NCBI GenBank assembly: GCA_964496765.1
Contig: CAZCAP010000001.1
Span: 63,609 to 95,608, forward strand
Direction of reading: 5' to 3'
Origin: an uncultured archaeon
Lineage (GTDB): Archaea; Iainarchaeota; Iainarchaeia; Iainarchaeales; CSSED10-239
Length of the DNA: 32,000 bases
Both the position numbers and the translations under genes were made by a program. Shown piece after piece: positions 18,754 through 26,653 of this stretch. Every line of letters begins with the position of its first letter. The first letter of the stretch is position 1. The notes below the pieces were generated by a model that saw only the letters and a list, made by a program, of their open reading frames with translations, ran no database searches and was not told the DNA's origin.

Positions 18754-18821
18754 AGATTAATAAGTATTATAAATTATTTGTATATGATGAAAAACCTTAG
18801 ATAACACAAGTAAATATAGAA

Positions 18822-18926
18822 TCCCTCCTCCCAGATTCGAACTGGGGATCTACCGGTCACTGCCTTTCTTCTCAGTGTTTACATAAAGTCTACAGCCGGT
18901 CGCACTAACCGCTGTGCTAAGGAGGG
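18822..18926 (-). tRNA. tRNA-Tyr(GUA) with a 32-nt intron at the canonical 37/38 position (intron 18858-18889)
   Basis: Manual fold: acceptor CCCTCCT/AGGAGGG (C1:G72), D arm GCAC/GTGC, anticodon stem ACCGG/CCGGT, loop CTGTAGA, T arm CCCAG-TTCGAAT-CTGGG. The intron forms helix-bulge-helix-bulge-helix (CTGT/GCAG central helix, 3-nt bulges AGA and TGA, outer helix CTTT/AAAG). No CCA is encoded. Confidence 0.9.
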
Positions 18927-19000
18927 ATTTATTCCTTAATAAAATACGGTTATATAATATATTATAAAGACAAAAAGGTATATAAATAGATTTCTCATAA

Positions 19001-20767: not shown

Positions 20768-21502
20768 TTATTTAATTTTTTCAAAACTTGCTTTATCTAA
20801 AATAAATTTATACCCTGGCATTGGAACAAAACGCGTTTTAACTCCAAAATAATTATTTAAAATTTCAAGATAAACTTTTGTAGGAGGCATTTTATTTTTA
20901 ATTCTTAATTGCATTAAATCAAATTTTTTCTTTGTATATAATTTTTCACGTAATAATCTTTCAAATAAAATGCGTTTTTTAACCATATTATAAAATGCAT
21001 AGTCATTCTTAAGTATATTAATTGCTTCTGGATTATTTTTACAATAGGACTCAATAATGTCCTTATCTGTAATTGTATGTTTATATTTTTTATATTCTTC
21101 ATTAATTATTTTATTTGTTTTTTTTGTAAAAGTAAAAAAGGTTCTCCCTATGTTTTTACTTGTTTTTTTATCAATAATTAAAATTCCTTCTATATCTATA
21201 TTTTTAAAAAACAGTTTATCTACATGCCCAGCAATATCTCCAACAGATGGAAGAGCAGGTTTATCATTGAACCTACGGCTAATATGAGAATGATAGGCCC
21301 TATCTTGAAGTTTGCCTAAGTTTAAACTTACGGTCCTTTTATTTCTAATCTTACTTATTTCTTCTAATTCAGAAAATGGAGCATTTTTCTTTGTAAAAAT
21401 AGCTTCTTTTTTAGTTATGTTAGGAGTAGATTCAACAATTTCTTTTGAAGTTCTATATCCAATTGGCTTAACATATTTACTTAGTTTTTTTATTGGAGGC
21501 AT
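20768..21502 (-). CDS. Hypothetical basic protein (244 aa)
   Basis: A long ORF 13 nt upstream of tdk on the same strand. No motifs were recognised. Confidence 0.5.
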   Translation of the reverse strand: MPPIKKLSKYVKPIGYRTSKEIVESTPNITKKEAIFTKKNAPFSELEEISKIRNKRTVSLNLGKLQDRAYHSHISRRFNDKPALPSVGDIAGHVDKLFFKNIDIEGILIIDKKTSKNIGRTFFTFTKKTNKIINEEYKKYKHTITDKDIIESYCKNNPEAINILKNDYAFYNMVKKRILFERLLREKLYTKKKFDLMQLRIKNKMPPTKVYLEILNNYFGVKTRFVPMPGYKFILDKASFEKIK

Positions 21503-21568: not shown

Positions 21569-21850
21569 GGCTAGTGGTCTGCTATAAGCCGCTTTCTGTA
21601 CTAAATTGGCAATCTGTCTTATGCGGAGGTAAATTTCTCCTTGCACCACACTCTTTCTGATAAATTTTTCAGCAATTCTTGTTTCTCCTCAGTGATTACA
21701 CATCACAGGATAACAGAAACAAGCTGTCCTTTTTCTGTTCAGAAAGCATCCTTTGCAGGATGTTTGTCTTTTTATTAAGGGTGAGCGGACTTTCCTTGTC
21801 TGTTAAACCCAAAGGCTTAACAAGCATGCCAAAACACAAACCACTAACAT
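21569..21850 (-). ncRNA. rnpB: RNase P RNA
   Basis: The minus strand contains ACAAGGAAAGTCCGCTCACCC (CR-I, GGAAAGUCC) and TACAGAAAGCGGCTTATAGCAGACCACTAG (CR-V, ACAGAAnnnGGCUUA). The termini pair as P1 (TTAGTGGTTTG / CAGACCACTAG, two G:U pairs). The region is locally GC-richer and has only mutually overlapping spurious ORFs. The ends are approximate, within a few nt. Confidence 0.8.
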
Positions 21851-21925
21851 ATATATTAAGAGAAAAAGTATATTTAAAGATATTGATTGGAGGACAGTAA
21901 GTACTGTCCAACAAATATAACAATA

Positions 21926-22618
21926 TCACTTATTCCTAATTACTTCATTCACAGCTGAATAAAATCCACCCATAATTACATAAACAATAAATAACAAAAT
22001 AATTGCACCAATATAGTACATTATATTTGCATTTATTCCCAATAATTGTAGGATTCCTAATAATATAGCAACGCCTAATAAATACATTACAAAGTAACCT
22101 ATTAAAAAAAGCATTGAAACTAAAAAGTTTTTTGTCCAAATAGTCTTTAGATTAGATCTGAATGCAAAGAAGTTTTCGAATTTCTTATTTTGGAAATATT
22201 TAACAAATCCAACTAGTTTAATCAACTCTACAATTCCAGCAATAACCATGAATATTGCCATAATTATTGAAACAACTAGTATTAAGGCTGGATTTATTGT
22301 TGGACTTAGTGTAATTAAATAATAGGGAATAAAACCAATTAAAACAATTATTCCTTCAATTATAAAAAATATAATTGATACAAGAATAAACATTCCAGAA
22401 AACTTAAGTATGTTTCCCCAGGTTTTATTATTATATTTATTTAATTTTCCTGTATTAAGTAAACTTGCAAGGAAACCAGTACCTAGAATCAAGATAAGTG
22501 CTGCAGAGATTATTAAAGTAACCTCACTAATTAATGCAAAAAGCATAAGAGCAAAAATAATCCATAAAAATTTGATATTAATATATGGGAAACCAAGTGT
22601 TTTTCTTAAATCAAACAT
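21926..22618 (-). CDS. Polytopic membrane protein, unknown function
   Basis: A 230-aa ORF with about 6 hydrophobic helices. Confidence 0.6.
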   Translation of the reverse strand: MFDLRKTLGFPYINIKFLWIIFALMLFALISEVTLIISAALILILGTGFLASLLNTGKLNKYNNKTWGNILKFSGMFILVSIIFFIIEGIIVLIGFIPYYLITLSPTINPALILVVSIIMAIFMVIAGIVELIKLVGFVKYFQNKKFENFFAFRSNLKTIWTKNFLVSMLFLIGYFVMYLLGVAILLGILQLLGINANIMYYIGAIILLFIVYVIMGGFYSAVNEVIRNK

Positions 22619-22700
22619 ATCTTTTCATTTCTCCTAAATATTTTTTAAATTAGTAAATTCTTTTATTGATTGAAAGTAAAATACGTTGCTTGAAATTTAA

Positions 22701-22773
22701 GTGGACTCTGCGAGACTCGAACTCGCGGCCTCGTCCTTGCAAGGGACGCGATCTACCAACTGATCTAAGAGCC
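22701..22773 (-). tRNA. tRNA-Ala(UGC)
   Basis: Manual fold: acceptor GGGCTCT/AGAGTCC with the G3:U70 alanine identity pair, D arm GATC/GATC, anticodon stem CGTCC/GGACG, loop CTTGCAA, T arm GCGAG-TTCGAGT-CTCGC. No CCA is encoded. Confidence 0.93.
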
Positions 22774-22877
22774 CAATATATAATTTATTGTTGATTTTCT
22801 TACTATATACTAATATAATTATGCTTAAATATATTTATAAATACATCTTATACTAAATAATTTTTTAAAAATCAAAT

Positions 22878-23693
22878 TTAAGGAAATACTAGTTTCCAGC
22901 TTAAACAATTAAATAAAGGTAAAATAAAGATTAATAATAAAAGAATTAATAAAGACAGGATTAAGTAAAAAATGATTTGTTTAACCTTTATTTTCTTTTG
23001 CTTATTTGTTCTTTTAAATGCTTTTCCTAATCTAAAAAAGAGTATTGGAATCAAAAAAGATTGAATAACATAAAAAGTACACCAAATTGATGGAGAGGCT
23101 GTGCAAACATTCACAGAGAAAAGAAAATAACCAACAAAAACATAAATTGCACTAAGAATGAAAGAAATATCTGCAATAGTTAATAAATAAATTAATATTG
23201 TATGCTTTGATTTATCATCTTTAATCTCAGAATTTATTTTGAAAGCACAAATATGCCAATAAATAAAAAAGAACAACCAAACTATTGCCCACAAACCAGC
23301 AGAACTATGTTGCAAATAAAAGCTTGTTGATCCAAAAGTTAGTGGAGAAAAAATTATTTGCAAGGAAACAAGAAAAATAGGAATAATAGCTATCCAACTA
23401 TATATTTTTGTATTTGATAAGATTTCAAGTGATCTAAGAAAGAAATATACAGCACAAATTGAAATTATTAAACCAATTTTGTAGATTATTGTATTATTTG
23501 TTAATAAAGATAAAAATTCAAAAAATTGATGCAATCCAATACATAAAAATATAGCCATTGAAGAATATAAAAATGGTAGTAACCATTTTTTTTCTGAATT
23601 TTCATATTTATTTTTATAATAGAAAAAATAAATTACAGCAGATATTAGAATAATTAAAGATGTGGCTAACTGCACTCCAAGACTATAACACAT
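22878..23693 (-). CDS. Polytopic membrane protein, unknown function, located between the 16S rRNA and tRNA-Ala
   Basis: A 271-aa ORF with about 8 hydrophobic helices. It has its own TATA-like motif at 23713-23727. Confidence 0.6.
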   Translation of the reverse strand: MCYSLGVQLATSLIILISAVIYFFYYKNKYENSEKKWLLPFLYSSMAIFLCIGLHQFFEFLSLLTNNTIIYKIGLIISICAVYFFLRSLEILSNTKIYSWIAIIPIFLVSLQIIFSPLTFGSTSFYLQHSSAGLWAIVWLFFFIYWHICAFKINSEIKDDKSKHTILIYLLTIADISFILSAIYVFVGYFLFSVNVCTASPSIWCTFYVIQSFLIPILFFRLGKAFKRTNKQKKIKVKQIIFYLILSLLILLLLIFILPLFNCLSWKLVFP

Positions 23694-23712
23694 AAGTTAA
23701 TTAATGTAATAT

Positions 23713-23727
23713 AAATTTATAAATAGA
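23713..23727 (-). promoter_or_regulatory. Archaeal TATA-box-like element between the 16S 3' end and the 271-aa membrane-protein gene
   Basis: aatttataaatagat, ~20-35 nt upstream of the ATG at 23693. It is the same motif as at 1472-1487. Confidence 0.35.
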
Positions 23728-23913
23728 TATTGTTTAATTGAAAATAATCTACTCTGATAATAGGATAGAAAATAATAATTATCAGAACTTAGAATTAAAT
23801 TGAAAATCGAAGTTAAGATCTTGTATGTGGAGAAAACTTTCTTTACATTTTTTCTTTGAAATAGACATTTGAGTCATCTCAAAATCAATTTATATTTTGT
23901 ATATAAATTATTT

Positions 23914-25411
23914 AGGAGGTGATCCGTCCGCAGGTTCCCCTACGGACACCTTGTTACAACTTAGTCTGTCTCGCGGGATATAGAATTACTTCGACCTCTA
24001 AAGATTGAAGTTCATCCACACTCCACTCAACTGGCTTGATGGGCGGTGTGTGCAAGGCGCAGGGACATATTCACCGCGCGATAGTGACACGCGATTACTG
24101 GGGATTCCAGCTTCATGAGGGTGAGTTGCAACCCTCAATCCGGACTTGGATTACGTTTCTGTGATTGCCACCCCCTTTCGGGTTAGAGACACATTGTCGT
24201 AACCATTGTATGCCGCGTGTTGCCCAGGACATTAGCGCTATACAGACCTACCTTCGCCCATTCCTTCCTCATTGTTACCAATGCAGTCTTATTAGAGTGC
24301 CTCTCCATCATAAAGAAAGAAAGTAGCAACTAATAATATGGGTCTCGCCCGTTACCTGAGTTAACAGGAAGCTTCGCAGTACGAGCTGACGATGGCCATA
24401 CAGCAGCTTTCAGCGTATCAGGTAAACCCTTCAGATTGACCGTCATCTGGCTGTCAGCCCTGGTGAGATATCTGGCGTTTCATCCAATTAAACCGCAGCA
24501 TCCACCCCTTGTAGTGCACCCCCGCCAATTCCATTAAGTTTCAGTCTTGCGACCATACTTCCCAGGTGGTGGATTTAATGATTTCTCTTCGGCCCTGAGT
24601 TAACTCGTAGTTAACCCAACACCTAATCCACATCGTTTACAGCTGGGACTAACCGGGTATCTAATCCGGGTTGCGCCCCCAGCTTTCGTGTCTCATTGTC
24701 AGATTAGTTCTCGTTTGGCGCCTTCGCCACAGGTGGTCCTCCTAGTATCTTAAGATTCTACTCCTACTCTAGGAATACCCCAAACGTCTCCCTATCTCTA
24801 GTTCTGTCAGTATCTTTTGCAATTCAACTGATTAAGTCAGCTGCTTTCACAAAAGACTTAACAAACCAACTACACACGCTTTAAACCAAATAATGCTGGA
24901 TACCACTCGGGGATTACGTATTACCGCGGCGGCTGGCACGCATATTGCCCCCCCCTTATTCGTATTGTTATCGACACAATACAAAAGCTTACGAATGTAA
25001 GCACTTGGAATTCCTTTATCACGGTTTCCCGCATTGTAAAATTTTCGTAACTGCTGCACCCCGTAGGGCTAGGAACATTATCTCAGTTTCCTTCTCCGGG
25101 CTCCCTCTCTCAAGGCCCGTACAGATCTTCGGCTTGGTAGGCAATTACCCTGCCAACTACCTAATCTGACGCAGTCCCATCTTTTCGCACTTAAATCTAC
25201 ATGACAACTTAAGCCTTTGAAAAATCAATCATTCCAGATTTGATTTTCTATAGAGCATTATCCTTAGTTTCCCAAGTTTTACTCTTCAAAAAGGTAGGTT
25301 GACTACGCGTTACTGAGCCGTTCGCCAAAGTTCATCATGGTTAGAACTTTTAGACTTGCATGTCTTAGTCGAATTCCAATAGCAGTACCCACCAGCAGGA
25401 TCAGCTGGAAT
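23914..25411 (-). rRNA. rrs: 16S (SSU) rRNA, archaeal, complete (~1.5 kb)
   Basis: The minus strand starts ATTCCAGCTGATCCTGCTGG...GGCGAACGGCTCAGTAACGCGT. It contains GTGCCAGCCGCCGCGGTAA, ATTAGATACCCGGTTAGTCC and TGCACACACCGCCCATC, and ends ...GGGGAACCTGCGGACGGATCACCTCCT. Confidence 0.97.
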
Positions 25412-25697
25412 TGGTATTAATTATTATGCACACAAAGATATTTTGTAAATTTGCACAAATTGCTTTTGTTTAGCTATTTGTTTCGTCTTCTCCCAACATC
25501 AGACTCAAAAAAATTTGAGACCTCATCATTATACAAGATCCACAGTTTTACCTAAAATAGATTTAGATAAAAAAGAAACTTGATATTACCTCATTTGAAA
25601 AATTCAAACGCGGTAATATAATAATGGAGTAGAAATGTTTATAAAGGTATATGTCGTTTTCCTCAGAAAAAGAAAGATTTCGGGTAGACCTATAACC

Positions 25698-26177
25698 TTA
25701 TTTAGTTAATTTTTCAAGAAATCTTATTTTTTTAAGATATTTCTTATTTCCTCTTAATAAGTATATATACCTATACATTTTAAGAAGCATTCCTAATTTA
25801 ACAACAATTACCTTATTTTTTTTGTATATTATTGTTTCTCTAAGCCTATAATCTTCAAGAACAGATAAAGCAAGCTTATCATAGGATCCTTTCTTGAAAG
25901 CCATTATATCTATTTCTGTTCCAAACAATTGAAAATCAAATCTTCCACCAGTGTCTGATTTATAATCCTTTGAATTAAATGTAACTTCTTTTATCTTAGA
26001 AAGAACATTATCTATCTTCCTTAAATCTTTATAAAAAATAAATATATCAATGTCATTTGCTATTTTTCTAAGCCCTCTTATCTTTAGAGACAAAGATCCA
26101 AACACAAAATAAGTTATTTTTTCTTTGTTAAATAAATCAATTATAAAAAATAGAGCTTTATTAAAATTTTTCTTCAT
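25698..26177 (-). CDS. Small nucleotidyltransferase-fold protein, Lnu/ANT(2'')-like
   Basis: ITYFVFGSLSLKIRGLRKIANDIDIFI gives the G-S...D-x-D Pol-beta NTase signature, with a third acidic residue in EIDIMAF. The N-terminal KALFFIIDLFNKEKITYFV resembles the lincosamide nucleotidyltransferase LnuA N-terminus as I remember it. Confidence 0.55.
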   Translation of the reverse strand: MKKNFNKALFFIIDLFNKEKITYFVFGSLSLKIRGLRKIANDIDIFIFYKDLRKIDNVLSKIKEVTFNSKDYKSDTGGRFDFQLFGTEIDIMAFKKGSYDKLALSVLEDYRLRETIIYKKNKVIVVKLGMLLKMYRYIYLLRGNKKYLKKIRFLEKLTK

Positions 26178-26185
26178 TGATTATC

Positions 26186-26653
26186 CTAATTTTTTTTATT
26201 TTTAGATAGTATTTCTTTTGCAATTTTTTGTCTTTTCTTAATATCCATTTTAGGCCCAACTAATGTAGTTATATATCCAGGATATTTTTCAAAATAAATA
26301 TTACCTGACAACTCTCCAAACTTGGAATCATCAATTTTGGGCATAGGGTATAATTTAGTATGAATGTGATTTACTCCTTGCCCTTCAAAAACCATTGCAA
26401 CCCTCTTAACCCCTAATCCTTTTTCAAGAATCTTTGCAACCTTCTTTGAAATTAATAGTAACTTTGTATATACGCTAGGAGATAAATCAAAAACATAAGA
26501 ACCATAATGTTCTTTTGTTAATACAAGAGTTGCACCTTTTATATTTGGGTGGGCATCTAAAATAGCAATAAAAATTTTATCTTCATATATGATTGCAGCT
26601 TCAAGTTCCTTCTTTGCAATCTTACAAAACACACAATCAGATTTTTGCTTCAT
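26186..26653 (-). CDS. HIT-family protein with a variant histidine triad (H-I-H-T-K)
   Basis: CVFCKI...IYEDKIFIAILDAHPNIKGATLVLTKEH is the HIT N-terminal half. The triad region reads GQGVNHIHTKLYP, with Lys replacing the third His (verified on DNA). An 8-nt gap separates it from the downstream NTase gene. Confidence 0.75.
   Translation of the reverse strand: MKQKSDCVFCKIAKKELEAAIIYEDKIFIAILDAHPNIKGATLVLTKEHYGSYVFDLSPSVYTKLLLISKKVAKILEKGLGVKRVAMVFEGQGVNHIHTKLYPMPKIDDSKFGELSGNIYFEKYPGYITTLVGPKMDIKKRQKIAKEILSKNKKN

Follow-up and report, generated by a model that had tools for sequence, protein, structure and literature searches.

Unlinked rRNA genes in a family of Iainarchaeota: a probable two-step history of a 16S locus that carries an inserted membrane-protein gene

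The analysis of a 32,000-nucleotide (nt) stretch of DNA, hereafter the window (contig C1, positions 63609-95608, of a 738-kb metagenome-assembled genome (MAG) that is 86% complete), from an Iainarchaeota (Diapherotrites, DPANN) archaeon reveals a 16S ribosomal RNA (rRNA) gene that is followed, in place of the 23S gene, by protein genes, the former spacer tRNA-Ala(UGC) and the RNase P RNA gene. We explain this locus by two events of different ages, the first family-wide and the second at the level of the genus. In the family ancestor the 23S gene was removed from behind tRNA-Ala, and a membrane-protein gene (open reading frame (ORF) 271, named for its length in amino acids) was later gained and settled between 16S and tRNA-Ala, with the parts of the former operon probably now transcribed as separate units. 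We assign this explanation as a whole a probability of about 0.82. The best-matching sequence runs are lake water metagenomes, and we found no publications on this CSSED10-239-type family. The main features of the locus, all on the minus strand, are as follows.

23914-25411, minus strand: 16S rRNA gene, archaeal and full length (Rfam RF01959, 1346 bits), one copy in the assembly
22878-23693, minus strand: ORF271, 271 amino acids, about eight hydrophobic segments
22702-22774, minus strand: tRNA-Ala(UGC), the former spacer tRNA, found by Rfam and ARAGORN (anticodon UGC), 3' end at 22701/2
21926-22618, minus strand: ORF230, 230 amino acids, about six hydrophobic segments
21570-21848 (approximate), minus strand: compact RNase P RNA, supported by Rfam matches, a contig from an RNA run and family synteny

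The initial annotation had placed these five elements in this order and at these positions, which our searches reproduce; its tRNA-Ala gene (22773-22701) likewise stands, except that the 5' end was one base short of 22774. No other tRNA-Ala was found in the 86%-complete assembly. The annotation had also reported the 23S and 5S genes as missing. Neither gives an Rfam match within the window, and contig C1 has no 23S in the 87 kb that follow 16S. Both were located elsewhere in protein-coding surroundings, the single 23S mid-contig at C6:8137-11121 and the 5S at C9:13846-13962, each with protein ORFs on both sides, and the suggested relocation of the 23S is borne out. By the definition of Brewer et al. 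(more than 1500 bp from 16S to the nearest 23S; bioRxiv 10.1101/705046), the 16S and 23S genes are unlinked here.

The ends of rRNA genes often misassemble in MAGs, and the annotation itself had named a chimera at these junctions as a way in which its reading could fail. The window contains no N gaps, and overlapping contigs from low-depth DNA runs tile the locus; the one piece across the 16S end holds merely 27 nt of 16S, which alone is not enough to validate the junction. However, the junction is bridged in two further species, on three independent contigs. L090 (JGI) and L091 (ENA), with 85% nucleotide identity to the window and 83 and 173 nt of the 16S 3' end, run through the spacer and ORF271 to the region upstream of tRNA-Ala. 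The single 5-kb contig L173 (ENA) combines 557 nt of 16S (98% identical) with ORF271 at 75% amino-acid identity, with tRNA-Ala and three further ORFs, and also with ORF230 and RNase P. Because the same junction recurs in two other species, the 16S-ORF271 junction is genuine and not a misassembly; furthermore, the 16S trailer pairs with its own leader and the flanking gene order is conserved in the family. A chimera at the end of the 16S gene is refuted by these three contigs, and we regard its probability as negligible. The same-genus genome G001 (an 85%-complete assembly) does not have the locus in its assembly.

The state before the split was examined across the order, in part through a survey of 23S linkage for which 40 loci were retrieved. 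In 55 genomes from 22 other families, including the sister lineage, the 23S gene lies approximately 0.1-1.2 kb after 16S, nearly always with tRNA-Ala in between, and this supports the earlier reading of the 16S-tRNA-Ala order as a relic of the ancestral operon. Within the family, no 23S follows 16S in any of the 11 genomes with enough downstream sequence to be testable; the two genes are about 140 kb apart in G005 (a single contig of 839,632 bp) and about 109 kb apart on opposite strands in G011. A 16S tree recovers the family as a clade with support of 100 and a linked sister (G037), and it requires two linkage changes, one in this family and one in a family designated f30. Upstream of 16S, FEN1 and tRNA-Glu are also conserved in the family. 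These comparisons show that the ancestor of the order carried a linked 16S-tRNA-Ala-23S arrangement with the 5S apart, and that in the ancestor of the family a rearrangement just behind tRNA-Ala removed the 23S and joined 16S-tRNA-Ala to a block of ORF230, RNase P RNA, thymidine kinase and tRNA-Tyr. The separation of the 5S is old and precedes the 16S/23S split, because the 5S is already separate in the linked relative G036. Family f30 represents a second, independent stretching of the operon: four of its genomes (L069, L095, L096, L097) retain the order 16S, tRNA-Ala, 23S, stretched to 3.6-13.5 kb by protein genes, and two more have no 23S nearby.

The second event concerns ORF271, which the initial annotation had allowed might be a chance ORF lacking conservation. 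It has 141 homologues with up to 87% identity, a ratio of nonsynonymous to synonymous substitution rates (dN/dS) of 0.076 relative to the sister species and 0.098 relative to a homologue from outside, and synonymous divergence near saturation across at least three species that keep the site. The homologues and the low dN/dS rule out a chance ORF, and on this sequence evidence ORF271 is a real gene under purifying selection. In ten family members tRNA-Ala lies 108-285 nt behind 16S with no ORF between, and a profile of 70 ORF271 homologues detected none in 195 other genomes of the order (21 of the family and 174 further), the sole exception being one stop-ridden fragment (E 2.7e-4). In the genus lineage ORF271 was later inserted between the 16S trailer and tRNA-Ala and was then kept by purifying selection. 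The proposed insertion of a protein gene is thus upheld by the synteny of relatives, which have the gene in two other species and lack it in the ten family members; the view that such an insertion is unusual fares less well, considering that tRNA-Ala has a TATA-like box of its own and that the 16S-tRNA-Ala site has repeatedly taken unrelated genes. G004 carries a 547-amino-acid GLUG-repeat, pilin-like gene at the same site, f30 genomes have unrelated genes over 1.4-12 kb ahead of tRNA-Ala, and G002 has an AI-2E transporter after 16S with the tRNA-Ala-ORF230 block on another contig.

Named homologues of ORF271 come from Woesearchaeota, Nanoarchaeia and Patescibacteria and stand in unrelated gene neighbourhoods. 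One of them, with 75% identity, lies beside an alanyl-tRNA synthetase gene named Nanoarchaeota, and the match at the DNA level continues for 31 nt ahead of the start. The simplest reading is a lateral gain in this genus lineage: ORF271 is probably a foreign membrane-protein gene that settled in the gap after the family-wide split, with co-occurring Nanoarchaeota-type archaea as the most likely donor. The alternative, that ORF271 was ancestral at the site and lost in other genera, or acts in rRNA or tRNA maturation, draws on its retention at the site across the species with near-saturated synonymous divergence; against it stand the lack of matches in the 195 other genomes in the profile search, homologues elsewhere that are not beside rRNA genes, and a membrane bundle without an RNA-binding domain, and we hold it to be very improbable. 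As a separate observation, an alanyl-tRNA synthetase directly upstream of an ORF271 homologue on a Nanoarchaeota-type contig (L051:1940-3628) has 562 amino acids and apparently lacks its C-terminal part.

How these genes are expressed was approached through promoter-like sequences, of which four lie in the locus.

25609-25648, minus strand: promoter-like block of 16S (TATA box and AT-rich start region), a putative promoter with a near-copy upstream of the distant 23S gene at C6:11318
23712-23726, minus strand: TATA-like box about 25 nt ahead of the ORF271 start, a putative promoter kept in both related species; the distance suggests a leaderless mRNA
22830-22847, minus strand: TATA-like box of tRNA-Ala, which predates the insertion
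21868-21881, minus strand: TATA-like box before RNase P RNA, a putative promoter

We propose that 16S, ORF271, tRNA-Ala, RNase P RNA, 23S and 5S are now probably transcribed as independent units, each of which would have a TATA box of its own, and that ORF271 is probably not expressed as an mRNA embedded in a pre-rRNA. The box already noted ahead of ORF271 is present; its 11-nt pattern occurs 15 times in the genome, two of them in this locus. In all 12 family loci a TATA-like box lies 15-90 nt ahead of the first tRNA-Ala (shuffled rate 0.49 each), compared with 6 of 48 linked genomes; since the loci are related and AT-rich, this amounts to support and not proof. With tRNA-Ala independent of 16S transcription, the spacer would tolerate insertions, and the differing kinds and lengths of the inserts suggest that they have no special link to rRNA.

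A competing account holds that ORF271 is transcribed from the strong rRNA promoter in a 16S-ORF271-tRNA-Ala precursor and is freed as an mRNA by stem cleavage and RNase P. All of these parts share one orientation and no clear terminator, only T5 runs, lies between 16S and ORF271, so that read-through is possible; nevertheless, the conserved TATA-like box at leaderless-mRNA distance in three species, the box of tRNA-Ala in every family locus and the variety of inserts at the site speak for separate units, and co-transcription is in our judgement unlikely. The lack of a clear terminator also counts against our explanation, as do several further points. At 87% AT the spacers are rich in TATA-like words (0.49 by chance); the RNA runs consist of contigs only and therefore give no start or end positions; and most comparison genomes are incomplete MAGs. 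The donor and the direction of the ORF271 transfer are uncertain: the divergence within the genus (75%) is the same as that from the closest homologue outside it, and the protein tree has no root. Matches from a terminator scan were at chance level, and a sigma-70 scan is unsuited to an archaeon. No RNA-run contig covers ORF271 or tRNA-Ala, which carries no weight against expression.

Processing signals around the rRNA genes were also compared, and four elements were mapped at the 16S gene.

25497-25526, minus strand: 16S leader hairpin with tandem GA/GA ends (kink-turn or C/D-like), found in 10/10 family genomes and 11/12 linked genomes examined
25483-25540, minus strand: 5' arm of the 16S processing stem, pairing with 23817-23836
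23817-23836, minus strand: 3' arm of the 16S processing stem, with no strict bulge-helix-bulge predicted
23751-23759, minus strand: ATCAGAC-like element upstream of the insertion site

The predicted leader-trailer stems are strong for 23S (-65.8 versus -26.8 kcal/mol for shuffles, with 0 of 100 as good) and moderate for 16S (duplex at -37.9 versus -29.9 +/- 3.9 kcal/mol, with 2 of 100 as good). Each rRNA would be cut from its own leader-trailer stem, and a splicing endonuclease gene is present. The ATCAGAC-like element occurs in 9 of 14 16S trailers and 6 of 10 23S trailers (at most one mismatch; background 23% per 260 nt). A strict bulge-helix-bulge in the 16S stem was predicted in none of 12 family genomes, none of six f30 genomes and 17 of 54 linked genomes, among them the sister G037 (mismatched control, 1/54). 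The motif is also lacking in the other 37 of the 54 linked genomes and its absence is not specific to the family; with only two independent clades and many linked genomes without it, we do not claim its loss as a result of unlinking. Nor do we claim that the 16S leader and the 23S trailer pair in trans, given that 9 of 100 shuffles are as good and linked genomes show no matching complement.

The promoter-like blocks of 16S and 23S resemble each other closely. At up to six mismatches the 16S block occurs exactly twice in the genome (at 25609-25648 of the window and at C6:11318), and the two are 88% identical over 42 nt, while the others among 1,935 TATA-like sites reach at most 69% (mean 41%). 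The spacers of 16 out of 19 linked relatives contain no such word and the three remaining matches fall in A-rich runs, so the 23S block looks like a novelty of the family. The 23S promoter would then have been copied from the 16S promoter or closely match it, and the output of both genes could thereby stay similar. Across eight genomes, identity between the 16S and 23S blocks is 68% inside a genome and 55% from one genus to another, and for orthologous blocks compared across genera it is 57% and 50%; taking one genome per genus, the true 16S/23S pairing ranks first or second of 24 permutations. This likeness within genomes may reflect concerted evolution or merely a genus-wide drift of promoter preference, and both the lineage-matched promoters and the missing 16S bulge-helix-bulge are only suggestive. 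It is a tentative and rather doubtful proposition, in our estimation, that after unlinking matched, co-evolving 16S and 23S promoters replaced co-transcription and the 16S bulge-helix-bulge was dropped; if true, the family would offer a dated natural experiment on rRNA stoichiometry after unlinking, with linked sisters as controls.

The ORF271 protein was characterised through its predicted model (predicted local distance difference test (pLDDT) 88.6), which has seven helices over residues 3-225 plus one extra helix. A Foldseek search returned nothing with an E-value of 0.001 or lower. Comparison with the G-protein-coupled receptor (GPCR)/rhodopsin fold gave Z 12.6 (GPRC5D, VIA) with a root-mean-square deviation of 4.0 over 208 residues and ~10% identity, and the seven-transmembrane (7TM) regions of bacterial sensor kinases and GGDEF proteins scored a template-modelling value of ~0.6 (Atlas) as predicted models, a level that helical bundles often reach. 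The predicted seven-helix bundle of ORF271 may resemble those of HisKA_7TM proteins and GPCRs, from which the protein differs in its extra C-terminal helix, its lack of an output domain and its lack of a Pfam match: HisKA_7TM (PF16927) matches none of 70 members at E 0.01, nor the window protein at E 10. The family is closed, the longest member having 325 amino acids; no homologue has a fused output domain, and fused signalling forms were found neither among 68 representatives (all of at most 325 amino acids) nor, in a weak test, among longer proteins. The sequences share an invariant H55-Q56-x-x-E59 motif, a conserved D175 and five conserved cysteines. No retinal-binding lysine occurs at positions 200-220 in 70 aligned sequences, and a microbial rhodopsin was rejected for want of the helix-7 lysine. 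ORF271 belongs to an unnamed family of predicted 7TM-plus-one-helix membrane proteins; it is probably a stand-alone membrane sensor, for which we see roughly even odds, or a small-ligand binder, and probably unrelated to ribosome biogenesis. Nothing observed ties ORF271 to RNA processing.

The canonical operon has the 23S after tRNA-Ala, a position occupied here by ORF230 and the RNase P RNA. ORF230, a membrane-protein gene, is found in 17 of 196 genomes of the order, all inside this family, and lies between tRNA-Ala and RNase P in most family loci; behind it there usually come RNase P RNA, thymidine kinase, a DUF2666 gene and a tRNA gene with an intron. It has a weak, below-cut-off match to DUF4013 (Pfam E 3.8e-4) and shows no similarity to ORF271, and the idea that the two are paralogues was rejected. 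The RNase P RNA matches RF00373 (E 1.9e-14, the sole match in the genome) and RF00010 (E 2.6e-13) below the Rfam gathering scores (52.5/84 and 48.6/100 bits), as do its family relatives. The conserved catalytic-domain blocks, the terminal helix, the single copy and abundant RNA are all present, and the synteny is shared across the family. Its predicted fold includes a long terminal helix and scores better than that of any of 200 shuffles (z -3.6), and an RNA-run contig from a lake metatranscriptome covers 21578-21836 at a depth of ~228, compared with 0-4 over neighbouring protein genes. Genes of an orphan protein family with paralogues recur directly behind the RNase P RNA and close to FEN1 in family genomes (window 20768-21502, minus strand; L083:878-2314; L039:9542-10216). 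Further along, a tRNA-Tyr(GUA) with a 32-nt intron (window ~18821-18927, minus strand), missed by the default tRNA scan, is syntenic in relatives. On the other flank, just upstream of the 16S promoter (window 25698-26653, minus strand), lie a HIT-family gene, in the same place in several relatives, and then a Pol-beta-like nucleotidyltransferase gene.

Compared with known systems, the locus falls into a described class. The unlinked state is prevalent in DPANN, and one Aenigmarchaeota genome is listed in which a protein gene lies between the rRNA genes (PMC8997704); the 2022 supplement to that work lists one Diapherotrites genome among those examined. As in the systems of Brewer and of Juttner and Ferreira-Cerca, 16S and 23S are more than 1500 bp apart in a clade-conserved manner in small-genome DPANN; here, in contrast, linkage prevails in the order, and the split is placed separately on each of two families and not on a phylum-level ancestor. 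Whereas Prometheoarchaeum has tRNA-Ala beside 23S, here it stays with 16S and a protein gene has been added between. Thermoplasma acidophilum and Nanoarchaeum equitans (PMC7038931, PMC8339473) likewise have 16S, 23S and 5S apart and no bulge-helix-bulge predicted in the 16S flanks, but our family differs in having close linked relatives and in keeping long leader-trailer stems, and the separate transcription demonstrated in Thermoplasma is only proposed here. With the Haloferax volcanii operon (PMC7038931) the locus shares 16S followed by tRNA-Ala(UGC), a 16S processing stem and a C/D-like leader element, but no 23S or 5S follows downstream. In Haloferax, 23S maturation depends on an intact 16S stem in cis, and Thermoplasma and Nanoarchaeum are without the bulge-helix-bulge (PMC7038931); since no 23S or 5S lies downstream here, such cis coupling cannot operate.

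Several side observations concern tRNA and rRNA genes of the order. In genus g4 the spacer tRNA-Ala is a tandem array of three isoacceptors (CGC, AGC, UGC) behind 16S.

L040:7897-8278; L037:9367-9839; L046:6063-6516; L080:2130-2563: tRNA-Ala arrays of genus g4

Several spacer tRNA-Ala genes also carry introns, and four linked relatives (L112, L128, L129, L130) have insertions of ~50-750 nt, probably introns, at one position inside 16S (near 741-746). Archaea are said to lack tRNAs with A at position 34 (PMC8007984), yet such tRNAs occur in the genome studied here (G000; C5:20306-20388 and C8:1793-1877) and in L037:9611-9683, L040:8044-8115, L046:6266-6337 and L080:2362-2433. Each of the five family genomes checked has tRNA-Leu(AAG), whereas tRNA-Ser(AGA) is confined to this genus (GGA in the other three) and tRNA-Ala(AGC) occurs in genus g4; a stepwise spread of A34 to the Ser and Ala boxes may be less known. 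A 165-amino-acid deaminase gene with HAE and CPMC motifs, possibly TadA-like or a guanine deaminase, lies between tRNA-Thr and tRNA-His (G000 C5:245-523; L137). PF00383 has no match in G005 or G008, and as G005 nonetheless has tRNA-Leu(AAG), the deaminase fails to explain the A34 tRNAs. The 738-kb genome also has two tRNA-His(GUG) genes (C5:599-671, C17:8891-8963) and two tRNA-Asn(GUU) genes (C5:33470-33542, C10:20597-20669).

The locus is a real, well-dated example of already known unlinked rRNA genes, an arrangement that would not surprise a specialist in ribosome biogenesis and whose value lies in its resolution. The stepwise order can be followed, with genes first having putative promoters of their own and the spacer then receiving gene insertions. 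Unlinking on two branches of a mostly linked order argues against a single phylum-level DPANN origin, a matter left open in PMC8997704. ORF271 represents a stand-alone 7TM family, so far uncharacterised, whose members move among DPANN and Patescibacteria. In practical terms, amplicon methods spanning 16S, the internal transcribed spacer and 23S will miss this family.

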